Source: an uncultured Gammaproteobacteria bacterium
GTDB taxonomy: Bacteria > Pseudomonadota > Gammaproteobacteria > CAKMZV01
Reading direction: 5' to 3'
Length of the DNA: 64,000 nt
NCBI GenBank assembly: GCA_929200535.1
Contig: CAKMZV010000005.1
Coordinates: 12,442-76,441, forward strand
Shown: in pieces, positions 3,492-63,686 of the stretch
How the letters are laid out: the number at the start of each line of letters is the position of its first letter
Position numbering within the stretch: position 1 is the stretch's first letter
Translations under genes and position numbers: made by a program
Notes under the pieces: model-generated
Seen by the model: only the letters and a program-made list of their open reading frames with translations
The model's database searches: none
What the model was told of the DNA's origin: nothing

Positions 3492-4645
3492 TTCAATTTT
3501 TTTATTGCCTGCTCAATATCGCCAGGTAGTTGTGCTTCATCTTTTAATCTGCTTTGATGAAATTTATCATATTTTTCTTGTGCCAGTTGATCGGCTATTT
3601 GTTTTGTTACGTTTCCTGCATTGGTTAAAACTTCTTGGTTATTAAGTTGTAGAAATGCATCTAATTTTTCACGCCAATCTTTCATAAACATTTGTTTGTG
3701 ATTTTTAGCTTGGAGCTCGGCATAGTCTAAATACATTGTTACAATTCTGTTGAGCGTGTCTAATTCCTCTTTATATAGGCTACCTCTATTAAATATGACC
3801 CGTGTAAAAAAGCGAAAAATTCTCCCCAATTTCGTTGAAAAAAGTGGCAATAGAATGGCTATTACTCACTTTTTCCGCCTCATTGGGAATAATTTTTCAT
3901 CTTTTTTCCATCGTCCCATATTTAATAGAGATAGCCGATAATTTTTAGAAATAGTAACATCTTGTTTTCTTACTTTGTTTCCTTGCCAAGTCGTAAGCCC
4001 CATATTATCTTGCTTGACATCACTACGTTCTGCAATTACCTCGGCGGCGGTATGACCAGTCGCTGCAAAAATAAGTTTGTTTTGCACCACTTTAAAAAAT
4101 TCTTGTGTTTCTTCTGCCTTGGGTTCATAGTCTATGGATAGGGCATAAATATCCGTAATTTTGCGGTAAAAACGTTTTTCACTGGAACGTATATCTCGTA
4201 TCTCTTCTAATAGGTCATCAAAATAATCTTTACCAAAAGGGTTATCAGGATTTTTGAGTTTTTTATTATCAAGAACAAAACCTTTAATAATCAGTTCTTT
4301 TAGTTGCCGTGTTGCCCAAATTCTAAAGTGTGTTCCACGAATGGAATTGACTCGATAGCCTACTGAAATAATCATATCCAAATTGAAGAAATCCATTTGG
4401 TATGTTTTACCGTCTGTGGCAGTTGTTGCAAATTTTGCAACAACTGAATCTTTCTCTAACTCTTTGGTTTTATAGATGTTTTTGATGTGGCGACTGATGC
4501 CACTCTTATCAATGCCAAAAAGTTCTGCCATTTGATTGATGGTAAGCCAAATGGTTTCATCTTTGAGTAATACATCTACCTTTACCTCACCGTCTGGATT
4601 TCGGTAGAGTAAAAAATTGTTATGCTTGTTTGTTGCTTTATTCAC
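3488..4645 (-). pseudogene. rhuM: rhuM-family virulence/Fic-associated protein gene, split by a MITE insertion
   Basis: ORF 3866..4645 (259 aa) matches the RhuM N-terminal and central regions (...WLTINQMAELFGIDKSGISRHIKNIY...NLDMIISVGYRVNSIRGTHFRIWATRQLKELIIKGF...). ORF 3488..3850 carries the RhuM C-terminus (...DYAELQAKNHKQMFMKDWREKLDAFLQLNNQEVLTNAGNVTKQIADQLAQEKYDKF...). The break coincides with the 159-bp TIR element at 3778-3936. Confidence 0.7.
3778..3936. mobile_element. MITE-like element, family B copy 1 (20-bp TIR ggctacctctattaaatatg / catatttaatagagatagcc), inserted in rhuM
   Basis: Near-perfect terminal inverted repeats. A second copy with the same termini and subterminal module (atatgacccgtgtaaaaaagcga) lies at ~41656-41827. 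No ORF of transposase size. Confidence 0.65.
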
Positions 4646-7765: not shown

Positions 7766-7805
7766 GAGACTTTTTCACTTGTCATATTTTTTGTGCAAAG
7801 GTCTC
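7766..7805. repeat. minimal family-A element or solo terminus (gagactttttcac...acttgtcatattttttgtgcaaaggtctc) between gatC and gatA
   Basis: Contains the 28-bp family-A terminus (reverse complement of gagacctttgcacaaaagatatgacaagt) paired with a short degenerate gagac half-site. Confidence 0.5.
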
Positions 7806-8091
7806 ACTCTATAATGGTGGGCACAAGATATAATCCAGCTTCTGTTTGTGGGGCATTTTGTTGCATTTTTTCTCGCTGGTCTTTTTCTGTAACTACATCT
7901 TCACGTAATCTTTGGGTGATGGCTAAGGGGCTGGACATTGGCTCTACCTTAGATGTATCCACCTGATTAATTTGATCAATCAAGCTGATAACTTGATTAA
8001 ACTGTTCGGTAAATTTTGGGAGCTCTTGATCATTAAAATGAAGGCGTGCAAGATGAGCAACTTGTTTGATATTTTCGCTTTTTATGGACAT
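7804..8091 (-). CDS. gatC: Asp-tRNA(Asn)/Glu-tRNA(Gln) amidotransferase subunit C
   Basis: 95-aa protein, MSIKSENIKQVAHLARL..., typical GatC size and position upstream of gatA. Confidence 0.85.
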   Translation of the reverse strand: MSIKSENIKQVAHLARLHFNDQELPKFTEQFNQVISLIDQINQVDTSKVEPMSSPLAITQRLREDVVTEKDQREKMQQNAPQTEAGLYLVPTIIE

Positions 8092-9325: not shown

Positions 9326-9328
9326 TTT

Positions 9329-9625
9329 GAGACCTTTGTACAAAAGATATGACAAGTAAAAAAGTAAAAAATTGCCTTGATTTTTATTCGCAAGCGCTTC
9401 AAACGCTGTTACTCTATGGTTCGTAAACTCACCAAGAGTAAAAACGCTTTTTGTGTTGTGAAACTTGCGAAGACGGACGTATTAGCTTCATTTCACGCCT
9501 CAATCAGAATAATTTTTTATCTTTTTTCTTTTACCTGCAAGCAGTTCAAACACTGTTACTCTAAGGCTCGCAAGCTCGCCAAGAGTAAAAACGTTTTTTG
9601 TGCCATACTTTTATGTAAAGGTCTC
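9329..9625. mobile_element. MITE-like element, family A copy 1 (TIR gagacctttgtacaaaag...cttttatgtaaaggtctc), with an internal ~70-bp module duplicated
   Basis: Begins 4 bp after the mreB stop. ~95% identical over shared parts to the copy at 30036-30263. Internal module (caagcgNttcaaacRctgttactctaWggYtcgYaaRctcRccaagagtaaaaacgYtttttgtg) is present twice (9379-9450, 9536-9606). Confidence 0.7.
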
Positions 9626-28571: not shown

Positions 28572-29993
28572 TTAAGGTAGAAATAGAGTTGTAAATAGTG
28601 TGCGTTGATTACGATATATGAGTACACGAAAACGAGTTCTTTTAGGGGCACTTTCAACAATTTTACGAAATTGGCTGACGGATTCTATTTCGTGATTTTG
28701 TAGAGTGAGAATAACATCATTTTTTTCTATTCCTGCACGGTTTGCTGGTCCATCCGTAAATACATCTTTTACCAGAATACCTTGTTGTAGTTCATTCAAC
28801 ATTTCATCACTTAAATTAATTACTTTGATGCCAACACGAGTGATGCTATATCCAATGTTGTTTCTTTTTTTTCTTTTTTTTCTATTTCGAGGCTCAAGTT
28901 CATCTACGGCAATATTCAGTGTTTTGGGTTTGCCATTACGAATAATTTTTACAGGTACTTTTTTGCCGATAGGAGTAATACCGACAATGGGTGGAAGGTT
29001 GTATGAGCGATTGATTTTTGTGCCATTAAAATTCACAATGACATCGCCTACTTCAATCCCACCTTTTTGTGCAGGGGTATCATCAATAACTGCTGAAACT
29101 AAGGCTCCATGGGGTGCTGACATATGAAACGTTTCTGATAGCTCAGAGGTAATTTCTTGAATTTGTACCCCAAGATAGCCACGACTAACACTACCTTTTT
29201 CTTTAAGCTCTTTAACAATGTATTTTACAAGGTTAGAGGGTATAGCAAAGGAAACGCCCATAAAGCCACCACTACGACTATAGATTTGAGAATTTACTCC
29301 AACAACATTTCCATTCAAATCAAATAATGGTCCTCCTGAATTGCCAGGATTAATAGCAACATCTGTTTGAATAAAAGAAACATAAGCATCGGCAGGTAGG
29401 CTACGCTCTTTAGCACTGACAATTCCAGCAGTAACTGAGTAATCAAAACCAAAAGGGGAGCCTATGGCAATGACCCATGCACCCACTTTTAATTTGGCTG
29501 AATTACCAAATGTGATAATGGGGAGATTATTTCTTTTAACTTTTAGCAGGGCAATATCTGTGCGCGGATCGCTCCCCATTACTTGAGCCTTTTTGACTTT
29601 TAAATCATTAAAGCGTACAAAGATTTCGTCGGCACCATCAATAACGTGGTGATTGGTGACAATATAGCCATCTTCACTGACAATAAAACCAGAACCCAGT
29701 GAGTGGTGCTGTGGTGCACCTCCATTAGGTTCGTCTCGAGGGTTTGAAGGGTCAGGTTGATTGAAAAAATATTTTAGCCATTCATCAGGTAAACCTCTAA
29801 ACTGAGGCGGAATTTCTTGCGAATTTGCAGGTTGATACTTTTTTGTGCTAATGTTCACTACGGCTTGACTTTGTTTTTTAGCAAGTTTGGTAAAGTCAGG
29901 CAGTGAGTTGGCGTGTAAATTCCCTGTTGATAGCAATAAGAGAGCAGAAAATAAAAAGGTGGTTAGCTGGCACCTGTTTGGTAAAATAGTCAT
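28572..29993 (-). CDS. degQ: periplasmic serine endoprotease DegP/DegQ (HtrA family, two PDZ domains)
   Basis: Signal peptide, catalytic triad context (TNHHV, D, GNSGGPL), two PDZ domains. Start set at the ATG at 29993. The longer tool ORF runs into the MITE. Confidence 0.9.
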   Translation of the reverse strand: MTILPNRCQLTTFLFSALLLLSTGNLHANSLPDFTKLAKKQSQAVVNISTKKYQPANSQEIPPQFRGLPDEWLKYFFNQPDPSNPRDEPNGGAPQHHSLGSGFIVSEDGYIVTNHHVIDGADEIFVRFNDLKVKKAQVMGSDPRTDIALLKVKRNNLPIITFGNSAKLKVGAWVIAIGSPFGFDYSVTAGIVSAKERSLPADAYVSFIQTDVAINPGNSGGPLFDLNGNVVGVNSQIYSRSGGFMGVSFAIPSNLVKYIVKELKEKGSVSRGYLGVQIQEITSELSETFHMSAPHGALVSAVIDDTPAQKGGIEVGDVIVNFNGTKINRSYNLPPIVGITPIGKKVPVKIIRNGKPKTLNIAVDELEPRNRKKRKKRNNIGYSITRVGIKVINLSDEMLNELQQGILVKDVFTDGPANRAGIEKNDVILTLQNHEIESVSQFRKIVESAPKRTRFRVLIYRNQRTLFTTLFLP

Positions 29994-30035
29994 ATTGGTT
30001 AAGGTTAATTTAGAAAATGAAAATTTATAAAAGTT

Positions 30036-30263
30036 GAGACCTTTGCACAAAAGATATGACAAGTAAAAAAGTAAAAAGTTGCCCTGATTTTTATCCGCAA
30101 GCGGTTCAAACGCTGTTACTCTATGGTTCGTAAACTCACCAAGAGTAAAAACGCTTTTTGTGTTGTGAAACTTGCAAAGACGGACGTATTAGCTTCATTT
30201 CACGCCTCAATCAGAACAATTTTTTATCTTTTTTCTTTTGCCATACTTTTATGCAAAGGTCTC
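30036..30263. mobile_element. MITE-like element, family A copy 2 (228 bp; TIR gagacctttgcacaaaag...cttttatgcaaaggtctc)
   Basis: Near-identical to 9329-9625 but with a single internal module. 18-bp perfect TIRs. No coding capacity beyond a ~25-codon ORF. Confidence 0.7.
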
Positions 30264-30372
30264 AAGTTATTTAATTAATTATACTTGCCCACGTAAGTAT
30301 TAGAGGTAGCTTTGTTTAAGAGAAGATTAATGCTTAATACACTACTATGCATAATATTTTCATCTCTTTAAT

Positions 30373-30837
30373 TTAAAGTTTCTGTTTTATTTGTAAGCCA
30401 AATGTCTTTTTTTTTGTAAAATGGTTTGCTGTTAGCCAAATAAGTGTGGTGCTTGCGAAGGCAATACACAGACTCCCCCATTGAGAGGGGAGAAGATAGA
30501 GGAGTAGCAGTAAAACTAGTGTTGGGAGAAGCCATAAAAAAAGCTGAATTTTTAGTATGTTGGTTTGTGAGAGTGATAGAGAGAGCGTGCTGCCAATGGG
30601 GAAGTGTTTTTTAGAGTAAATAATGACTTGTTGTTGATTTTTGTCAGTGGATGTTTTGGGCTTTAGTAACAGTTTTTTCCACAGCATAGAACCACAGTAT
30701 CCACCGCAACATTGTGTATTATCTGCTTGACAATCCATAGGTTGTAGGTTGAGCGTATGTTTGTTCTTGTGTTGTTCACTCACTTGTGCATTAATTTGAA
30801 TGTGTGAAGTAGTTGAGGGTATAGATGATGTAGGCAT
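30373..30837 (-). CDS. RseC/MucC-family membrane protein (SoxR-reducing-system-like), translationally coupled to rpoH
   Basis: N-terminal Cys cluster (DCQADNTQCCGGYCGS), a beta-like segment (PIGSTLSLSLSQTNILK), then two TM helices (LLLLYLLPS...). Colinear with E. coli RseC. Start ATG overlaps the rpoH stop (TAATG). Confidence 0.5.
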   Translation of the reverse strand: MPTSSIPSTTSHIQINAQVSEQHKNKHTLNLQPMDCQADNTQCCGGYCGSMLWKKLLLKPKTSTDKNQQQVIIYSKKHFPIGSTLSLSLSQTNILKIQLFLWLLPTLVLLLLLYLLPSQWGSLCIAFASTTLIWLTANHFTKKKTFGLQIKQKL

Positions 30838-31955
30838 TATCTTGTCTCCATACTATTTTTAATTTTCTTTAAGGCAACCGCCTCAATTTGCCTGACTCTT
30901 TCTAAGGAAACATTATGTTTTTCTGATAGATCTTTTAGGGTAATTTTATTACCAGAGAGCCATCTTTCTTGAATAATTTCTTTGCTCCGCTCATCTAATT
31001 GCCCAATGGCTTTAATCATTCGTTGTTTTTGAAATTCAAAATTATCAGAATCAACAAGGATTTTTTCAGGTGAGTAGCGTGTATCAGAGAGGTATTGGGC
31101 TGGTACTAAGGTATTCTCATCATCATTTTCACCGAGATCAAAAGTGGCGTCGGATTGAGTCATCCTGCCTTCCATTTGATAGACTTCTGAAACTTTGACA
31201 TCTAATTTTTTAGCGATACGTTGTGCTTCATCACCATCAACCCAATCTAAATTTTTCTTTGAACTTCGGAGTTTGAAAAATAGTTTGCGTTGTGCTTTGG
31301 TGGTTGCCATTTTAATAATACGCCAATTTTTAATAATAAATTCGTGTATTTCTGCACGTACCCAGTGCGAGGCAAAGGACATTAATTTAACTTTTTTTTC
31401 AGGTTGAAATTTTTTAATGGCACGCATTAGCCCAACATTACCCTCTTGTACTAAGTCGGGTAAGGGTAAGCCATATCCAGAGTATTTTTGTGCGATGGCG
31501 ATAACATAGCGTAAATTGCTAAAAACTAATTTTTGGGCAGCTTCAAGATCGTTATATTTATGGATTCTATTGGCTAATTCCCATTCTTCTTCACTACTTA
31601 ATTTTGGTGCGGAGTTAGCACTCTGTACATATTTTTCAAAGCTTCCAGTATCTTGAAATGGGACTAAGGCTTGAGTTTCGGTTTCATCGTTTTTTTTCAG
31701 GGTTAGTGTTTGAGCACCCTCGATTTTAGGTTGTGAATTCCCTTCAACAAACTGCTTTTCATTTTTTTTATTATGTGTGGGAGGAGTAGCTTCCTCTTCA
31801 TCTTCAATAGTTTCTAACTCTTCTATATTGATAAAATCATCAGCATTGTCAAAAAACTCAGGAGTTTCTTCAGGCGAATTTTTTTCAACGGAATTGAGGA
31901 TTAAATCACCGTTTTTTTTAGCTTTATCTTTGTTAGTCTGATTTTTTTTAATCAT
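30837..31955 (-). CDS. rpoH: RNA polymerase sigma-32 (heat-shock sigma factor RpoH) with ~90-aa acidic N-terminal extension
   Basis: RpoH box QRKLFFKLR, region 2 (LVQEGNVGLMRAIKKF...SFASHWVRAEIHEF), region 4 HTH. Conserved RpoH N-terminus begins ~aa 95. The only in-frame ATG, GTG or TTG upstream of it is the ORF's first codon. Confidence 0.85.
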   Translation of the reverse strand: MIKKNQTNKDKAKKNGDLILNSVEKNSPEETPEFFDNADDFINIEELETIEDEEEATPPTHNKKNEKQFVEGNSQPKIEGAQTLTLKKNDETETQALVPFQDTGSFEKYVQSANSAPKLSSEEEWELANRIHKYNDLEAAQKLVFSNLRYVIAIAQKYSGYGLPLPDLVQEGNVGLMRAIKKFQPEKKVKLMSFASHWVRAEIHEFIIKNWRIIKMATTKAQRKLFFKLRSSKKNLDWVDGDEAQRIAKKLDVKVSEVYQMEGRMTQSDATFDLGENDDENTLVPAQYLSDTRYSPEKILVDSDNFEFQKQRMIKAIGQLDERSKEIIQERWLSGNKITLKDLSEKHNVSLERVRQIEAVALKKIKNSMETR

Positions 31956-32436: not shown

Positions 32437-32682
32437 TTATCCTCCGGTGATTGGGGGAAAAAGGGCAATTTCGGCATTCTCTGGGATAGGGGATTCCCAA
32501 GTACTTAAATTCTGGTTAATTGCAATTTGTGTTTCTGGATTATTTAGTGCTTGTTGCCATTTTTCACCACGCTGGCAGAGGTGGGCTTTTAATTCATTTG
32601 CAGTGGCAAAAGATTGCTCAATTGGCTCTTCAGCAATGCCAAGTTGTTCTTTCAGTTTGGCAAAGTATAGAATGTTAATCAT
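32437..32682 (-). CDS. moaD: molybdopterin synthase sulfur-carrier subunit
   Basis: 81 aa ending in GG. MINILYFAKLKEQLG N-terminus typical of MoaD/ThiS fold. Sits between moaA and moaE. Confidence 0.7.
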   Translation of the reverse strand: MINILYFAKLKEQLGIAEEPIEQSFATANELKAHLCQRGEKWQQALNNPETQIAINQNLSTWESPIPENAEIALFPPITGG

Positions 32683-32710: not shown

Positions 32711-33709
32711 TTATCCGCCGAGTGATACCATTTGACGAAATTCAATATTTTTTCGATTTTCATTGAAAAAATGACGCTCTGGTTTTAGTTCCATCGATTT
32801 GACAATCATAGCCTCAAGTTCATTATCGCTGATGCCATCACGTATTGGTTGGCGTAAATCAATGGAATGTTCTTGCCCCAGACATAAGGCAAGCGTGCCT
32901 CTTGAGGTGAGACGTACGCGGTTGCAGGTGGCACAAAAATGTTGTGATACAGCGGAAATAACGCCGATACCGAGGTGTTTTTTTTCAGTACGGTAGTATT
33001 TTGCCGGTCCACCACCTTGGCGGCTAATGCTCGGAATTAGTTTTTCACCAAGGTGTTTTTCAACCCGCTCAAGCATTTCTTGCATTGGGATGTGTTTGTT
33101 CATTGAGTCAATCCCAGATTTTCCAATCGGCATTATTTCAATAAAGCGTAATTCAAGCCCGTATTTTGCGCTCCAATCAATGAGGTTTTCCATTTGGTCG
33201 TCATTAACTCCTCTCATCATTACGGTATTGATTTTGATTGGATCAAAGCCAATTTTTTTGGCTTGATAAATGCCTGTGAGAACTTTATTAAGGTTTCCAC
33301 CTCGGGTGATGCGATTAAATTCATCTGCGTTGAGCGTATCTAATGAAATATTCAGACGCCTAATGCCTGCTTGATAAAGGGGTTTTGCATAGCGTTCTAA
33401 GCGAGTGGCGTTAGTGGATAATGAGAGATCTAAATTGTCATTATCTTGGTTTATCATTGATACTATTTCGGTTAGATCTTTGCGTAAAAGAGGTTCGCCT
33501 CCAGTAAAGCGAATTCGCTTTACTCCAAGACGCACAAAAGCGGAGCAAATGCGAGAAATTTCTTCGGCAGTTAAATATTCAGTGTATTTGCCATTGGGGT
33601 GAACTCCTTTTGCTGGTGAGCAATAATCACAACGCAAATCACATTTATCCGTTACAGAAACGCGGATATAAGTAATTTCACGACCAAATGAATCAATTAG
33701 ACTTGTCAT
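32711..33709 (-). CDS. moaA: GTP 3',8-cyclase (radical SAM, molybdenum cofactor biosynthesis)
   Basis: CDLRCDYC radical-SAM cluster motif, C-terminal second cluster (CATCNRVRLTSRG), full-length MoaA similarity. Start codon lies inside a solo family-A repeat terminus. Confidence 0.9.
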   Translation of the reverse strand: MTSLIDSFGREITYIRVSVTDKCDLRCDYCSPAKGVHPNGKYTEYLTAEEISRICSAFVRLGVKRIRFTGGEPLLRKDLTEIVSMINQDNDNLDLSLSTNATRLERYAKPLYQAGIRRLNISLDTLNADEFNRITRGGNLNKVLTGIYQAKKIGFDPIKINTVMMRGVNDDQMENLIDWSAKYGLELRFIEIMPIGKSGIDSMNKHIPMQEMLERVEKHLGEKLIPSISRQGGGPAKYYRTEKKHLGIGVISAVSQHFCATCNRVRLTSRGTLALCLGQEHSIDLRQPIRDGISDNELEAMIVKSMELKPERHFFNENRKNIEFRQMVSLGG

Positions 33710-33730
33710 ATCTTTTGTGCAAAAGTCTCA
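33701..33730. repeat. solo family-A repeat terminus (acttgtcatatcttttgtgcaaaagtctca) overlapping the moaA start codon
   Basis: 28/30 match to the family-A terminus. The ATG ACA AGT of moaA is the atgacaagt of the repeat. Confidence 0.5.
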
Positions 33731-33889
33731 TTCTTTAATTTTATCGCTATGATTTAATTTATCAGCGTCTTTTTGACATTCTGTTAAATCAGCTTGGTAA
33801 GCATTCATATCAACTCCATCGGTATGAATAAAAGGAAGGGGGGCGATTACTACAGGCGGATAATACAAAAAGCAATAGAGTTATTATTT

Positions 33890-34252
33890 TTAATTTAATA
33901 CTTTATAGCCTCGGTTTTTTAAACATTTTTTAACAATACTGCTTTCTTCTTCATCATTCTTTAAGGCTCCTAAAGCTGTTCCTTCAGTAGCTCCGATGGC
34001 AGCGTGTGTGCCGACATTTTCTGGGTCAATTAAGGCACCAAGAGTACCTCGAAGTAATGCCCCAAAACCCGCACTTTTGGCAATGTTCTTACCGCTTTCT
34101 AACTGCTCTGCGACTTGTTCGCATTCAGCAAGATCAGTTTTATAAGCATCTATATCGATACCTTTAGTGTCGATAACTGGGCGACTGGCACAGGATGAAA
34201 GCAGTAGTGTTGACAGGGCAATTATCCAAAAAATGAAATTTTCTTTAACCAT
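33890..34252 (-). CDS. lipoprotein with glycine-zipper motif
   Basis: Lipobox LLSSC, then GFGALLRGTLGALIDP...GTHAAIGATEGTALGAL glycine-zipper-like segment. Overlaps the dsbA stop. Confidence 0.5.
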   Translation of the reverse strand: MVKENFIFWIIALSTLLLSSCASRPVIDTKGIDIDAYKTDLAECEQVAEQLESGKNIAKSAGFGALLRGTLGALIDPENVGTHAAIGATEGTALGALKNDEEESSIVKKCLKNRGYKVLN

Positions 34253-34871
34253 TTTTTAGTAAATAATTAATTATTTTGAAGATCTCATCTTTTCCCCCGG
34301 CGGTTTTTTCAGAAACACGATACTTCCCTTTAACAATAAAAGAGGGAACGCCTTCAATTTCAGATTTTTCAGTTAATTTTTTAGCTTGGGTCATTAAATT
34401 TTTAACCGCAAAACTATTGTAGGTTTTAGTAACGGTTTCTTTGTCAACTCCAACGCTTTTGAAAATATCGAAAATATCTTCTTGCGAGCGTAGTTGACCA
34501 GAGGAATAACGCTTAAAAATCTCCCCTTGAAGCTCATTGTGTTTTTTCAGTACGAATGCGACGTAGTAAAGTTGGACTGACCATTTGACACGTGGGGAGT
34601 AAAAAGCAGGTTGGTAGTGAAAATTAACTGTAGATTGTTTTGTTTTTAACCACTTTTCAACATATGGGTGAATATTTTTACAATGAGGACAACCATAGTA
34701 AAAAAACTCCACAACCTCAGGTTGCTTAGTCAGCGTGAACTCATTCTTCGGAGGGATTTTAAGATAATGTTTCCCTTCAATATACTTTTCTGCATTGCCT
34801 GACAAAGCAAGCAAAGAGAGAGTAGTTAACAAGAATGCTTTTGATAAAAGTGAAAGTGTTTTTGTTTTCAT
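34245..34871 (-). CDS. dsbA: thiol:disulfide interchange protein DsbA (copy 1)
   Basis: Signal peptide, CPHC active site (FFYYGCPHCKN), DsbA fold length (208 aa). Confidence 0.85.
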   Translation of the reverse strand: MKTKTLSLLSKAFLLTTLSLLALSGNAEKYIEGKHYLKIPPKNEFTLTKQPEVVEFFYYGCPHCKNIHPYVEKWLKTKQSTVNFHYQPAFYSPRVKWSVQLYYVAFVLKKHNELQGEIFKRYSSGQLRSQEDIFDIFKSVGVDKETVTKTYNSFAVKNLMTQAKKLTEKSEIEGVPSFIVKGKYRVSEKTAGGKDEIFKIINYLLKNG

Positions 34872-35027
34872 AATATTATTCTATAAGGTTGTTTTGAAAA
34901 AATTAAATAAAAGTGTAGCCTACAGTTCTCCATTATATCGATACCTTTGGTGTCGATAACTGGGCGACTGGCACAGGATGAAAGCAGTAGTGTTGACAGG
35001 GCAATTATCCAAAAAATGAAATTTTCT

Positions 35028-35654
35028 TTAACCATTTTTTAGTAAATAATTAATTATTTTGAAGATCTCATCTTTTCCCCCGGCGGTTTTTTCAGAAACA
35101 CGATACTTCCCTTTAACAATAAAAGAGGGAACGCCTTCAATTTCAGATTTTTCAGTTAATTTTTTAGCTTGGGTCATTAAATTTTTAACCGCAAAACTAT
35201 TGTAGGTTTTAGTAACGGTTTCTTTGTCAACTCCAACGCTTTTGAAAATATCGAAAATATCTTCTTGCGAGCGTAGTTGACCAGAGGAATAACGCTTAAA
35301 AATCTCCCCTTGAAGCTCATTGTGTTTTTTCAGTACGAATGCGACGTAGTAAAGTTGGACTGACCATTTGACACGTGGGGAGTAAAAAGCAGGTTGGTAG
35401 TGAAAATTAACTGTAGATTGTTTTGTTTTTAACCACTTTTCAACATATGGGTGAATATTTTTACAATGAGGACAACCATAGTAAAAAAACTCCACAACCT
35501 CAGGTTGCTTAGTCAGCGTGAACTCATTCTTCGGAGGGATTTTAAGATAATGTTTCCCTTCAATATACTTTTCTGCATTGCCTGACAAAGCAAGCAAAGA
35601 GAGAGTAGTTAACAAGAATGCTTTTGATAAAAGTGAAAGTGTTTTTGTTTTCAT
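35028..35654 (-). CDS. dsbA: thiol:disulfide interchange protein DsbA (copy 2, identical)
   Basis: 100% identical protein to copy 1, within the second 783-bp repeat unit. Confidence 0.85.
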   Translation of the reverse strand: MKTKTLSLLSKAFLLTTLSLLALSGNAEKYIEGKHYLKIPPKNEFTLTKQPEVVEFFYYGCPHCKNIHPYVEKWLKTKQSTVNFHYQPAFYSPRVKWSVQLYYVAFVLKKHNELQGEIFKRYSSGQLRSQEDIFDIFKSVGVDKETVTKTYNSFAVKNLMTQAKKLTEKSEIEGVPSFIVKGKYRVSEKTAGGKDEIFKIINYLLKNG

Positions 35655-35702
35655 AATATTATTCTATAAGGTTGTTTTGAAAAAATTAAATAAAAGTGTA
35701 GC

Positions 35703-36920
35703 CTACAGTTCTCCATAGGAATGAAGCCCAGATAAAAACATATTGACGCCAAGAAAGGCAAAGAGAGTAACGAATAGCCCAATAATAGCCCACCACGCCA
35801 TTAAGGTGCCTCGCCATCCTTTTGATATTCTTAGATGTAACCAAGCCGCATAGTTTAGCCACACAATCAATGCCCAAGTTTCTTTCGGATCCCAAGACCA
35901 ATACCCGCCCCAAGCCTCAGCCGCCCATAAGGCTCCGAGAATAGTGGCAATGGTAAAGGCAATAAAACCTAATGAAATTGCACGATAGGTTACCTCATCG
36001 ATAACCACTGTGGTGGGCATACGTTGTAACCAAAAAGATGGTTTTTCTTTTTGTTGGAAGTGATTGACGATTAACCATGCAATGGAGGTCATTGCGGCTA
36101 ATGCAAAAGCACCATAGCCGATAAAATTTGCTGGCACGTGAATTTTCATCCAATAGGAATTAAGGGCTGGAACTAAAGGCTGTATGTGGTGTGCGTTTCT
36201 TTCAAAGGCATACCACAGCAGGAAAGCAACCGCAAGCGAAACAATCAAGAGAGCAAAAAAGCCTAATTTGTAGTTTTGTAAGCGACGTTCTACTTGTAGA
36301 TAGATTAGCGTGGTAATCAAACAAAATAGAATAAAAACTTCATATAAATTACTGATTGGAATATGTCCGATTTGAGGGTCAATCAGGTAAGATTCGTGCC
36401 AACGAACTAATAATCCAGCAAAACCCATTACAACCCCTATCCATGCTAACTTACTGGATAATGCACCAATAAATTTATTGGTTGATAGAGTATGTGTTAA
36501 ATAGCCGATAGTTGAAAACACTAATAAAGCACTCATCCACATGACAGCAGATTGACTGGCAAAGAGATATTTAAGCCAAAAATTACTTTGTGCTAAATCA
36601 AGATTGTTTTGATATTGCCAAAGTGCAAAGAGGCTAATTACTCCAATAGCGATAAGGGCATATCTAAAAGCACGCCAATAAAAGCTGATGGAAAGCATCG
36701 TAATGACAGTAAAAATATAAATAACAACCTCAAAAACATCCATTGCTTGGCTATAGCGATAGCTAGCAAATAGAAAGAGAGTAGCCACCATCCATATTGA
36801 TGGAGAAAACAACGCTTCCCTAAGAAGGCGTTGGTCTATGGGTTCATTTATAGTTTGGTTTGCAGTAGTCACTTTATTATCATTAAAATAAGACGGCACA
36901 TTCATATTATAAGACGGCAC
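35703..36920 (-). CDS. ccsA: cytochrome c-type biogenesis protein CcsA/ResC (System II heme-handling protein)
   Basis: WWD/tryptophan-rich motif WAAEAWGGYWSWDPKETWALIVW, multiple TM helices. N-terminal ~100 aa poorly conserved, so the start is uncertain. Confidence 0.75.
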   Translation of the reverse strand: MPSYNMNVPSYFNDNKVTTANQTINEPIDQRLLREALFSPSIWMVATLFLFASYRYSQAMDVFEVVIYIFTVITMLSISFYWRAFRYALIAIGVISLFALWQYQNNLDLAQSNFWLKYLFASQSAVMWMSALLVFSTIGYLTHTLSTNKFIGALSSKLAWIGVVMGFAGLLVRWHESYLIDPQIGHIPISNLYEVFILFCLITTLIYLQVERRLQNYKLGFFALLIVSLAVAFLLWYAFERNAHHIQPLVPALNSYWMKIHVPANFIGYGAFALAAMTSIAWLIVNHFQQKEKPSFWLQRMPTTVVIDEVTYRAISLGFIAFTIATILGALWAAEAWGGYWSWDPKETWALIVWLNYAAWLHLRISKGWRGTLMAWWAIIGLFVTLFAFLGVNMFLSGLHSYGEL

Positions 36921-37031
36921 ATTAATATTAAATTATAAACTTTTAATGAATTGTCGTTGTAAAATTGTTTTTATTAGTTCAAATCATCTTTGGTATCGCC
37001 TATATTTTATTGCAAATCAAATTAAACAATT

Positions 37032-37514
37032 ATGAAAAAGTATTTTTTAATCGGTGTTCTTGCTGTTTTATTCTTGGTTGTATGGATAAATAAGGAATCC
37101 TTTTCTCTTGAAGTGAAAAATATGACTTTGGTTGATGTTTTTCAGAAAGAACACCAATTGCTCAACGCTTCTCCAGTATTGGTGAATATGTGGGCAACCG
37201 ATTGTGTTGCTTGTATTAAAGAGATGCCTAAACTCAAAGCGTTGCACAAAAAATACTCTGATAAAGGGTTCCGTGTAGTGGCAATTGCATTAGCTTATGA
37301 TAAATTAGAAGCAATTAAAATTTATGCAAAACAGAATTCTCTTAATTTTCCTGTTATTTATGATGAGGGAGAAAAAATTGCTCCTCTTTTTGGGAAAATT
37401 AGGGTAACGCCAACGAGTTTTTTATTAGACTCTAAAGGGAAGGTGGTAAGAAAAGCGATTGGTGAACCTGAATGGGATGATTGGGAGCAACAGATTAGGC
37501 AATTACTCTCTTAA
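37032..37514 (+). CDS. thioredoxin-fold thiol-disulfide oxidoreductase (TlpA/ResA/DsbE-like)
   Basis: Signal/anchor N-terminus, WATDCVAC CxxC motif, TlpA-like spacing. Divergently adjacent to ccsA. Confidence 0.75.
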   Translation: MKKYFLIGVLAVLFLVVWINKESFSLEVKNMTLVDVFQKEHQLLNASPVLVNMWATDCVACIKEMPKLKALHKKYSDKGFRVVAIALAYDKLEAIKIYAKQNSLNFPVIYDEGEKIAPLFGKIRVTPTSFLLDSKGKVVRKAIGEPEWDDWEQQIRQLLS

Positions 37515-38414: not shown

Positions 38415-40235
38415 GTGAAAAATCTATTTATGATAAATAATCGACTGCGAAATAAGCTGTCTTATCTCAAGTGTACTATTCTTTCAATAATGAAAAGTCC
38501 GCTTCAGACGCTGGTATTTCTTAAAAATATCAGGGGTGAGTCAGTATATGAAAATAAAAAACATATTGAATTGGCCACAGATTGGTTACTAAAGGCTCAA
38601 CAAGTCGGAGATGATCAAGGGTATTCAAGAGGGTTTTATTTGTACAAAGGTGGATGGGATAAAAGTTATATTGAAACAACTGGGTATATTATTCCAACGC
38701 TATTGAAGGTGAGCCGTACTTACAATAATAAAAAATATTATGACTCAGCTTTAAATGCTGGTCAGTGGTTGCTTTCTAAGCAAACTAAACAAGGTGGTTT
38801 TTGTGGTATTGATGCTTCGGATGAATTAGTCTTTGATACAGGGCAGGTGCTTTACGGGTTAGTTGCACTGTATGAGTTAGAAGAGAGTAGTCAAGATTTC
38901 AAATTGCAATATGAAACGGCGATAGAGAAGGCGGCAAGTTGGTTATGTGACGTTCAGGATGATGATGGTAGTTGGACTAAATATGGTTATGAGGGTATTG
39001 CTCACAGCTATTATTCCCGAGTTTCTTCGATTTTGTATCGTGTTGGAGAATTGATGAACAATCAAAATTATAAAGATTGTGCAGAAAAACATATTAATTG
39101 GGTCATTAGCCAGCAAAATGAGGTGGGTTTTTTTCAAAAATTACAATTTACTGCACAAGAAAAAAATAGTGTTTTACATTCGATTATTTATGTTTTAGAA
39201 GGATTATACGATTACTATTTAATGACAAAAAATGAGGTTGTTTTGCAATCAATGTTAAAGAATGCAGAGCAACTTAAACGCATTAACTTGGAAAGAGATT
39301 TATTGCTTGGTTCTCAATATGATGATAACTTCAATTGTGTCAATTCGGAAAGATGTATGACAGGATTAGCTCAATGGGCTGGATTAGCATTTAAGCTGCA
39401 TCAATTGACTAAAGATGAGGGCTATCTGCATTGTGCACGCAAAACAATATTTTATTTGAAGTCCAAACAATTTACAGAAGGGAAAGTGCGTGGAAGTTTA
39501 GCAGGATCAGTGCCTTTTTGGGGATTTTATGCTAAATTTCGGGCAATTAATTGGGGTGTTAAATTTTTTATAGATGCTCTTTTAGAGCATCAGAAAATGC
39601 CACTTTCATTAATTGAAGAAAGTGGTTTATGGATAGGAGAGTGTTTTAAGTTTAGCAATATGGTTGATGACAGATTAACAAGTACCTCGTATGAATATAT
39701 TAGTATTCTACAAAGCTATGTCGCTAATTCAGCAAATGTTTTAGATCTTGGATGCGGTCAAGGCAGGCATTTAGATTACTTTAGGGAGCAATTTCAAGAG
39801 AAAAACATTTTGGGGGTAGATCCTTACTATTATGATGGAAAAAAGGTGTTAGAAGGTGATGCGTATTGTATTAAAACAGATATAAAATTCGACTTAATTT
39901 ATACCATTGAAGCATTACAACATGTAAAATATCTTGATGTTGCCTTGGCTGAGATTCATAAAAAATTAGATGATAAAGGATACTTTATTATTTGTGATCG
40001 AAACCCTAATAGTTTGCTTGGCTACTTGAAGCCTATCCAAGAATGGCGTGGCAAATGGATGTACCCATTTGATAGCCCATTTCGGGAAAAATGGTACGGT
40101 ATTAAAAAATGGAAAAAAATTCTAAATGATAATGGTTTCTTAGTAGAAGATATAAAGACTTTTACAGGAAAAAATGGTCGTTTTGGTTGGTTCAGCAGAT
40201 ATAGTGTTATTGTCGCAAGAAAAAATAATGGTTAA
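38415..40235 (+). CDS. two-domain protein: N-terminal (alpha/alpha)-toroid-like repeat domain + C-terminal class I SAM-dependent methyltransferase
   Basis: N-terminal ~400 aa show recurring A..WL...Q..DG.W / GGW / GGF elements as in terpenoid cyclase, prenyltransferase or C5-epimerase toroids. C-terminal VLDLGCGQGRHLDYF motif I and downstream motif II of class I methyltransferases. Confidence 0.6.
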   Translation: MKNLFMINNRLRNKLSYLKCTILSIMKSPLQTLVFLKNIRGESVYENKKHIELATDWLLKAQQVGDDQGYSRGFYLYKGGWDKSYIETTGYIIPTLLKVSRTYNNKKYYDSALNAGQWLLSKQTKQGGFCGIDASDELVFDTGQVLYGLVALYELEESSQDFKLQYETAIEKAASWLCDVQDDDGSWTKYGYEGIAHSYYSRVSSILYRVGELMNNQNYKDCAEKHINWVISQQNEVGFFQKLQFTAQEKNSVLHSIIYVLEGLYDYYLMTKNEVVLQSMLKNAEQLKRINLERDLLLGSQYDDNFNCVNSERCMTGLAQWAGLAFKLHQLTKDEGYLHCARKTIFYLKSKQFTEGKVRGSLAGSVPFWGFYAKFRAINWGVKFFIDALLEHQKMPLSLIEESGLWIGECFKFSNMVDDRLTSTSYEYISILQSYVANSANVLDLGCGQGRHLDYFREQFQEKNILGVDPYYYDGKKVLEGDAYCIKTDIKFDLIYTIEALQHVKYLDVALAEIHKKLDDKGYFIICDRNPNSLLGYLKPIQEWRGKWMYPFDSPFREKWYGIKKWKKILNDNGFLVEDIKTFTGKNGRFGWFSRYSVIVARKNNG

Positions 40236-41655: not shown

Positions 41656-41827
41656 GAGACCATCTCTATTAAATATGACCCGTGTAAAAAAGCGAGAAAT
41701 TCTTCCTAATTTTATCAGCAAGCTATTTAAACAATCATAAATTTGCCAAGAATAAAAACACTTTTTGTTGTCTCACTGGAGGGATTTTTTAATTTTTTTC
41801 TATTATCTCATATTTAATAGAGGTAGC
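41656..41827. mobile_element. MITE-like element, family B copy 2
   Basis: Same termini (ctctattaaatatg...catatttaatagaggtagc) and subterminal module as 3778-3936. Left end begins gagacc as in family A. Internal segment ccaagaataaaaacactttttgttgt resembles the family-A internal module. Confidence 0.6.
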
Positions 41828-62624: not shown

Positions 62625-63686
62625 CTACTTTGTATCCGTTTCATTATCAGCACTCTTTTTGTCTGACGTTATTTTGGATTTGGCATTTTTCTTAGGCAGT
62701 AGAGCCTCTCTAACACGTTGTTCGATCTCTTGAGCTATCTCAGGATTATCTCGTAAATACTGTTTTGTATTTTCTTTTCCTTGTCCAATACGAGTTCCTT
62801 TATAGCTATACCAAGCACCTGATTTTTCAATAATATCCTCTCCTACGGCAAGGGAAATAATTTCACTTTCTCGTGATATACCTTCACCATACATAATCTC
62901 AAATTCCACTTGTTTAAAAGGTGGAGCCACTTTATTTTTGACAACTTTAACTCGAGTATCATTTCCAATAATATTATCGCCTTTTTTGATAGCTCCGATA
63001 CGGCGAATATCTAAACGTATAGACGCGTAGAATTTTAAAGCATTTCCTCCAGTTGTAGTTTCTGGATTGCCGAACATAACGCCAATTTTCATACGAATTT
63101 GATTGATGAAAATAACGATTGTGTTAGAGCGTTTAATATTTGATGTTAATTTTCTCAAGGCCTGAGACATTAAGCGTGCTTGTAAACCCATATGTGAATC
63201 ACCCATATCGCCTTCAATTTCAGCTTTAGGGGTAAGGGCAGCGACGGAATCAATAACTAAAATATCCACGCTACCAGAGCGAACTAAAGTATCGGTGATT
63301 TCTAAAGCCTGCTCACCAGTATCTGGTTGTGAGACTAATAACTCATCAAGATTAACGCCCAGATTTTTGGCATAATTTATATCTAAAGCATGTTCAGCAT
63401 CAACAAAAGCAGCCACTCCACCACTTTTTTGAACTTCGGCAATAGTGTGTAAGGCTAAAGTGGTTTTACCTGAAGATTCTGGACCATAAATTTCAATAAT
63501 TCTACCTCTCGGTACGCCGCCTACACCGAGTGCAACGTCAAGAGAGAGCGAGCCACTGGAGACGACTTTTAAATTCTCATCTTGCACATCATCATTCATT
63601 AGTTGAATAGCTCCCTGTCCAAATTGTTTTTGAATTTGAGAAAGGGCTGCATTTAGTGCAGTTTTTTTATCGTTTTCTGTTGGCAT
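62625..63686 (-). CDS. recA: recombinase RecA
   Basis: Walker [14 protein letters not shown]1/L2 loop regions, full-length RecA colinearity. Confidence 0.95.

Follow-up and report, generated by a model that had tools for sequence, protein, structure and literature searches.

The 64,000-nucleotide stretch of DNA analyzed here (the window) comes from the uncultured bacterium Candidatus Microaerophilica antagonistica, a symbiont of octocorals, and contains two adjacent, head-to-tail copies of a 783-bp segment, each with a complete dsbA gene. Comparison of the sequence with those of related strains makes it fairly probable that this is a real, recent tandem duplication, specific to a single coral colony, present in two or more copies and probably neutral. 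The two units abut at window positions 34151–34933 and 34934–35716 and are identical at 782 of 783 bases (99.87%) both in a period-783 comparison and by self-BLAST, exactly as claimed in a preliminary description of this DNA that reported a tandem duplication with a single-base difference. A 783-nt repeat at this level of identity is impossible by chance. The units have the same orientation with no spacer, as in a tandem direct segmental duplication, and create one novel junction. The register is broken at both 34150 and 34934, so that the run of identity is exactly one unit (783 nt). The pair is the sole long repeat of the 64-kb window, which contains no N, and was missed by Tandem Repeats Finder because the maximum period of that program is 500.

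In the ancestral arrangement, the order on the minus strand would have been ccsA, dsbA, lipoprotein gene, and moaA, and the segment copied head to tail would have taken in the final 14 nt of ccsA and everything from there through codon 34 of the lipoprotein gene. The gene content of the units is largely that given in the preliminary description: each has a complete dsbA with a CPHC motif, in the form of identical 208-residue open reading frames (ORFs), together with the 5′ part of the lipoprotein gene (the first 102 nt, or 34 codons). The part of ccsA in each unit, previously put at 20 bp, is in fact the last 14 nt (11 coding nt and the TAG).

The sequence at the junction is CCTACAGTTCTCCATTATATCGATACCTTTGGTGTCG (a junction-diagnostic string is also given as CTCCATTATATCGATACCTTTGGTGTCG), and the normal boundaries of the unit are GATCAGTTTTATAAGCATCTATATCGATACCTTTAGTGTCG on the left and GCCTACAGTTCTCCATAGGAATGAAGCCC on the right. 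The 3-bp CAT microhomology that had been proposed for the join is out of register: CAT occupies positions 34147–34149 and is followed by C34150 and only then by the start of the unit, leaving an in-register microhomology of zero. The parental breakpoints therefore differ from those of a microhomology-mediated duplication, whether by slippage or by microhomology-mediated break-induced replication, which have at least 2–3 bp of in-register identity, and a CAT-primed join would additionally require a 1-nt deletion of C34150. The two boundaries of the unit share no similarity, and no other repeat is present near them in the window on which homologous recombination could have acted, as occurs with insertion sequences, repetitive extragenic palindromes, or rrn operons. 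A mobile element was also considered and rejected, because the unit has no inverted repeats, encodes no transposase, and has boundaries that lie inside genes. The single mismatch, A34166 in unit 1 and G34949 in unit 2, is located 16 nt from the junction and is synonymous, affecting the codon for Thr29 (ACT or ACC) in the N-terminal region of the lipoprotein.

Comparison with Related Strains

Candidatus Microaerophilica antagonistica is a species of the Ca. Thioglobaceae that has been described from four metagenome-assembled genomes (MAGs) that derive from Leptogorgia sarmentosa colonies LS06–08 and Eunicella gazella colony EG16 (Keller-Costa et al. 2022, PMC9502895). The window belongs to a re-assembled octocoral metagenome, sample SAMEA3913368 (reads probably ERR1341881), for which the source colony is most likely L. 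sarmentosa LS06. It corresponds to ENA ERZ23492265, COST21-1_SAMEA3913368_METAG-scaffold_5 (83,659 bp; designated L001), to which it is identical over the 20.9 kb compared. Proteins specific to this strain are also encoded on an 85,694-bp contig in NCBI and JGI records. For the MAG LS06H_Bin4 (GCA_929200535), coverage is 22x and CheckM gives a strain heterogeneity value of 0; the libraries were prepared with Nextera and sequenced as 2 × 101 bp on a HiSeq 2500 with no whole-genome amplification, and the authors' assembler was metaSPAdes 3.13 (PMC9502895).

Seven public contigs encode precisely this DsbA protein, and of these only L001 has two dsbA genes and the 46-mer that spans the junction. 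The other six represent three haplotypes, each assembled twice (L002 and L005, L003 and L006, L004 and L007), that differ from the window by 23–30 single-nucleotide polymorphisms (SNPs) per 12.6 kb (99.76–99.82% identity; 99.6–99.9% in BLAST segments). All six, from three samples and two assembly efforts, are single-copy, contiguous through both unit boundaries, and have allele A, so that among the contigs compared the G allele is seen nowhere but in unit 2. One of the single-copy records, GCA_929200605 (CAKMZZ01), is listed as MAG LS07H_Bin3 (Table S1 of PMC9502895). Two more distant relatives, designated L097 and L098, have DsbA proteins that are 62–69% identical (69% in L097), and each has a single dsbA in the order ccsA-dsbA-(lipoprotein)-moaA. 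The single-copy state of the six contigs and of both distant relatives indicates that the ancestral state was single-copy, as expected for a tandem duplication, and that the duplication is confined to the assembly from one colony. A scan of GTDB genomes with CcsA gave best identities of 60–62%, in Thiothrix and Methylophaga, and no close relative. A search of JGI metagenome contigs with the junction pattern had no match, a result that is uninformative because a control across the normal left boundary also had none.

That the duplication is recent had previously been deduced from the near-identity of the copies. Recency stands, on the different ground that the three other strains and two relatives are single-copy, but the argument from near-identity is weak, because the assembler prints a shared edge twice. 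In this process the shared 767-nt edge is emitted twice and internal differences are popped as bubbles, so that the near-identity of the copies is partly a product of the assembler and weak evidence for dating. To survive assembly, a difference would have to lie no farther than about one k-mer from the unique flanks or the junction, and a simple loop would appear as two copies however many exist. The assembly is compatible with two or more copies and with any population frequency. Direct tandem duplications are recombinationally unstable where RecA is present and, since a recA gene is encoded within the window (62625–63686), the 783-bp direct repeat should be lost over time by recombination. 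We regard a neutral or transient variant, rather than an adaptive one, as most likely.

Two features of the variation among the four strains were also recorded. The region has a mean of approximately four variable sites per kb and includes two stretches of approximately 2 kb with no SNP, at 29817–31841 and 33005–35757, the second of which encloses the whole duplicated unit. The probability of a largest SNP gap of this length is approximately 0.006 under uniform placement; recombination, a selective sweep, or strong constraint could explain it. The most strain-variable proteins of the stretch are a 601-residue protein (38430–40235, plus strand), which has a faint squalene-hopene-cyclase-C-like region and an S-adenosylmethionine methyltransferase domain and differs in sequence in the strain of every colony, and the adjoining ThiD-like kinase.

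Duplication or Artifact of Library and Assembly

A different explanation, possible though doubtful in our judgment, is that the true genome is single-copy and that one or very few chimeric library molecules supplied the junction k-mers. metaSPAdes would then have walked the loop once, emitting the 767-nt shared edge twice, and the G at +16 would be an error in the chimeric molecule or molecules. An assembly artifact was among the options raised in the preliminary description; it is possible but less likely than was implied there, since the join contains no N and junction k-mers are needed in a metaSPAdes-type assembly.

Several points weigh against a real duplication. It is known from assembled sequence, the junction is on only one scaffold, and the six related contigs are single-copy. 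Scaffold naming and the presence of N10 gaps suggest that the ENA re-assembly was made by a SPAdes-type assembler. The junction is blunt, as in a random join, and its zero microhomology is atypical of bacterial duplications and is expected of a random in vitro join; characterized amplification junctions in Escherichia coli carry 4–15 bp of microhomology (PMC1428787). The sole mismatch is 16 nt from the join and is found in no other sample. Coverage is a modest 22x, at which a junction edge with few reads might survive graph cleaning. The statistics for the hairpin and the SNP given in the next section are post hoc. Neither the junction nor the chimeric ORF that it creates was found in any other queried record, although the JGI part of this search, with its empty control, carries no information and the 55-residue chimeric ORF has no gene call in any record, even on the scaffold that carries it, so that its absence elsewhere is also uninformative. 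Finally, scaffold joins made by this pipeline demonstrably contain small false duplications, as in L003. In that assembly (ERZ23492170 scaffold_2), the position equivalent to 32484–32492 reads GGATAGGGG-N10-GGATAGGGG, an unmerged 9-bp contig overlap, and this false micro-duplication fuses moaD and moaE to give a spurious gene call of 272 residues.

The chimera, in turn, encounters difficulties. A priori, a random chimera would be unlikely to link, in direct orientation, two points separated by only 783 bp, and the libraries were made with no multiple-displacement amplification. Neither an N run nor any other gap marker of the type left at a scaffold join is present at the junction. A de Bruijn loop should be traversable only when junction k-mers are present in the reads, and at k = 55 approximately 70 k-mers specific for the junction or the G would cover 124 nt. 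A single 101-nt read is too short to contain them all, so that two or more distinct reads would be required. An edge at 1x beside edges at 22–44x would, from the design of the assembler, normally be removed by graph cleaning. The two breakpoints share no 20-mer, so that no usual k should create the join spuriously.

False assembly duplications, in which unmerged overlaps or strain variants are set in tandem, resemble the present case in having adjacent near-identical copies in a short-read assembly with a mismatch near the join, but differ from it in that here there is no N run and the unit is far longer than k. A false duplication generated from a strain bubble or haplotype was rejected because the unit would be approximately k to 2k nt rather than 783, no usual k would place the SNP at an offset of 16, and the CheckM strain heterogeneity is 0.

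The Hairpin at the Left Breakpoint

A quasi-palindrome, TATCGATACC-TTT-A/GGTGTCGATA, begins 2 nt inside the left breakpoint and is predicted to form the hairpins listed in Table 1. The G allele of unit 2 is the loop-closing base, which pairs with C12 (C12-G16) and makes the hairpin more perfect. The substitution thus raises the complementarity of the inverted repeat, as in quasipalindrome template switching, and a change that perfects a quasi-palindrome is the defining signature of template-switch mutagenesis (PMC7202029); point changes beside amplification junctions have been documented in E. coli (PMC1428787). The pattern of mismatch and hairpin fits template switching by a polymerase. Among the 27-mers of the window, a folding as good as that of the ancestral hairpin is predicted for only 0.55% (58 loci in 63 kb), and the probability of finding such a hairpin flush with one of two breakpoints is approximately 0.02, a value calculated post hoc. 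Of all the substitutions that could occur in the unit, only about four would strengthen the hairpin. A random error would not be expected to fall on the one loop-closing base that perfects an adjacent hairpin, which argues against a random sequencing error as the source of the G; a polymerase-mediated event in vitro is possible.

If the duplication is real, the junction could have arisen through two successive switches within a single error-prone synthesis tract. The 3′ end of a nascent plus strand would leave its template at ...CTCCAT, in the last codons of ccsA, and synthesis would restart at T34151, 783 nt back, where no usable homology is present. Fifteen nucleotides later, the nascent strand would briefly copy its own hairpin arm, introducing G instead of A at the loop-closing position, and would then return to the normal template. 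The location of the G, 16 nt downstream of the junction on the plus strand, is the point at which a strand restarted at 34151 would fold back, having made the first arm and the loop.

Events of both types are known separately. The RecA-independent tandem duplications and amplifications of E. coli and Salmonella, exemplified by the lac junctions (Slack et al. 2006, PMC1428787), are likewise head-to-tail, have a single novel junction without long repeats on either side, and occasionally are slightly altered at the junction or close to it; template switching has been proposed for both. The lac junctions differ in having 4–15 bp of G-rich microhomology and units of 7–32 kb and in having been recovered under selection (PMC1428787), whereas here the in-register homology is 0 bp (CAT being one base off), the unit is 0.78 kb, and there is no known selection. 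In quasipalindrome template-switch mutations (the Ripley model and the thyA and lacZ reporters of Lovett; PMC7202029), one change perfects an imperfect inverted repeat at the position predicted from copying of its own arm, as is observed here. The difference is that the present change accompanies a duplication junction, at a distance of 16 nt, and is deduced from one sequence.

Genes of the Locus, dsbA Dosage, and Other Repeats

The genes of the locus are all on the minus strand, in the order ccsA, dsbA copy 2, the chimeric ORF, dsbA copy 1, and the lipoprotein gene, followed by moaA, moaD, moaE, and a gene for an RpoH-like sigma factor (Table 1). Both ccsA and the lipoprotein gene are left intact by the duplication. 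The DsbA protein has the DSBA-like thioredoxin fold of Pfam PF01323 (55.4 bits; cut-off, 25.6), and its closest solved relative is a DsbA chain (4zl7/3h93; E = 3e-30). The CxxC active site is Cys61-Pro-His-Cys64, and the cis-proline segment Gly174-Val-Pro176 is invariant in the alignment. Scores are below the cut-offs of the NCBIfam equivalogs (86.7 bits versus 290 for NF047695 and 78.5 versus 279 for NF008198), and the protein is therefore a divergent family member that corresponds to no named equivalog. Family matches of the 120-residue lipoprotein are weak and under curated cut-offs. The chimeric ORF comprises 34 residues from the lipoprotein (the signal peptide, the lipobox LSSC, and 13 further residues) and 21 out-of-frame residues encoded by the copied ccsA tail and the intergenic region.

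Table 1. Coordinates of the repeat units, hairpins, and genes at the duplicated locus (window numbering)
Feature	Position	Strand	Remarks
Repeat unit 1	34151–34933		783 bp; adjoins full-length lipoprotein gene; allele A at 34166
Repeat unit 2	34934–35716		783 bp; adjoins ccsA; allele G at 34949
Novel junction ...tctccat/tatatcg... (34933/34934)	34927–34940		Blunt, no N, zero in-register microhomology
Hairpin, ancestral form	34153–34175		9-bp stem, 5-nt loop, -5.2 kcal/mol, z = -4.1 (27-mer)
Hairpin, junction-side copy	34936–34958		10-bp stem, 3-nt loop, -6.3 kcal/mol, z = -5.5
Lipoprotein gene, intact	33890–34252	-	120 aa, glycine-zipper-like; overlaps end of dsbA copy 1 by 8 nt
dsbA copy 1	34245–34871	-	208 aa, CPHC, cis-Pro GVP; ATG overlaps TGA of chimeric ORF (ATGA)
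Chimeric ORF	34868–35035	-	55 aa, made by the junction; TGA overlaps ATG of downstream dsbA copy 1
Orphan copy of last 14 nt of ccsA	34920–34933	-	GGAGAACTGTAG context; end of unit 1; copied from 35703–35716
dsbA copy 2	35028–35654	-	Protein identical to copy 1; 48 nt downstream of ccsA stop codon
ccsA/ccsB-type system II cytochrome c biogenesis gene	35703–36920	-	PF01578; TIGR03144, 253.5 bits (cut-off, 187.6); intact, last 14 nt within unit 2

Both dsbA copies share an identical 62 nt upstream. Within the unit, matches to promoter and terminator consensus sequences are no better than in shuffled controls, and the single promoter-like site on the minus strand overlaps the dsbA start codon. 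Because the 48-nt gap has no convincing promoter or terminator, both copies are probably co-transcribed with ccsA, an arrangement that would double the dsbA dose.

Divergent from ccsA is a ResA/TlpA-like thioredoxin gene (37032–37514, plus strand), with no adjoining partner gene of the resB/ccsB type; together with ccsA and dsbA it makes up a compact periplasmic thiol-redox locus, which is also conserved in L097. The 5′ end of ccsA contains a 21-bp tandem repeat (36888–36930; two copies, 95% identical) that gives the N-terminal sequence MPSYNMN/VPSYFND and is invariant among the four strains, and the start of ccsA differs between gene callers (405 or 400 residues). The RpoH-like sigma factor (30837–31955, minus strand; 372 residues) has an acidic, low-complexity N-terminal extension of approximately 110–140 residues, its Pfam region 2 match beginning at residue 146; the homologue in L097 has 348 residues.

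An adaptive role for the duplication, which was another option in the preliminary description, finds nothing in the sequence or the comparison to support it. The broadest form of this proposal, in which the junction is real, the dsbA dosage increase is specific to the colony, perhaps with more than two copies, and kept against RecA-mediated loss, and the locus preserves a natural snapshot of a double template switch associated with a hairpin, its junction and palindrome-perfecting change lying in one tract, appears unlikely. That the dosage amplification itself is adaptive, serving periplasmic oxidative folding in the symbiont of this colony and selectively maintained at possibly more than two copies, seems very unlikely. 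Each copy has an intact ORF behind the same upstream sequence, the locus is redox-themed (ccsA, dsbA, and the divergent ResA/TlpA-like thioredoxin gene), two copies would be reported by the assembler even if more were present, and persistence at an appreciable frequency in the presence of recA could suggest selection. However, neither the three further colonies nor the pair of relatives has a parallel event, the boundaries of the unit fall arbitrarily within two neighboring genes and create a junk ORF with a lipoprotein leader, as an unselected random event would, and drift in a host-restricted population explains persistence equally well.

DsbA paralogues are naturally multiplied in several bacteria, for example DsbA1–3 of Neisseria, DsbA, DsbL, and SrgA of Salmonella, and DsbA1 and DsbA2 of Pseudomonas, and are old and diverged, with distinct substrates or anchoring. 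The window is similar to these in having more than one DsbA-family oxidase per genome but differs in that its two DsbA proteins have the same sequence and the event is restricted to a single sample.

It is scarcely credible that the duplication is species-wide or old and was collapsed to one copy in the other short-read assemblies: the 783-bp repeat does exceed the 2 × 101-bp reads and probably the inserts, and short-read assemblers often collapse repeats, but a junction at full depth would form a branching loop, so that contigs would be broken at the boundaries or the loop traversed as in the window, whereas the six single-copy contigs, which come from three samples and two assembly efforts, continue uninterrupted through both boundaries, and the relatives with 62–69% DsbA identity are single-copy.

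Two shorter repeats occur elsewhere in the window. A 209-bp dispersed intergenic repeat is present at 9327–9535 and 30034–30242 (96% identical), with a 38-nt terminal fragment inverted at 7769–7806. The copy at 30 kb is flanked by inverted repeats of approximately 20 nt (TTGAGACCTTTGCACAAAAG ... CTTTTATGCAAAGGTCTCAA) and resembles a miniature inverted-repeat transposable element, a small non-autonomous transposon; Rfam gave no match across the whole window, including this repeat. A 49-bp direct repeat (3784–3832 and 41664–41712; 94% identical) has copies 38 kb apart.

The phenomenon is an ordinary one, another instance of non-homologous tandem duplication. For annotation, a caution follows, in that two dsbA genes in the MAG or scaffold would inflate gene counts, and the identity of the copies is unusable for dating. 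The recent duplication that we favor matters little outside this genome and, if true, would be one more of the frequent, short-lived tandem duplications of bacteria. Its modest interest would lie in a breakpoint at a quasi-palindrome with a palindrome-perfecting change and in its marking the symbiont population of one coral colony.

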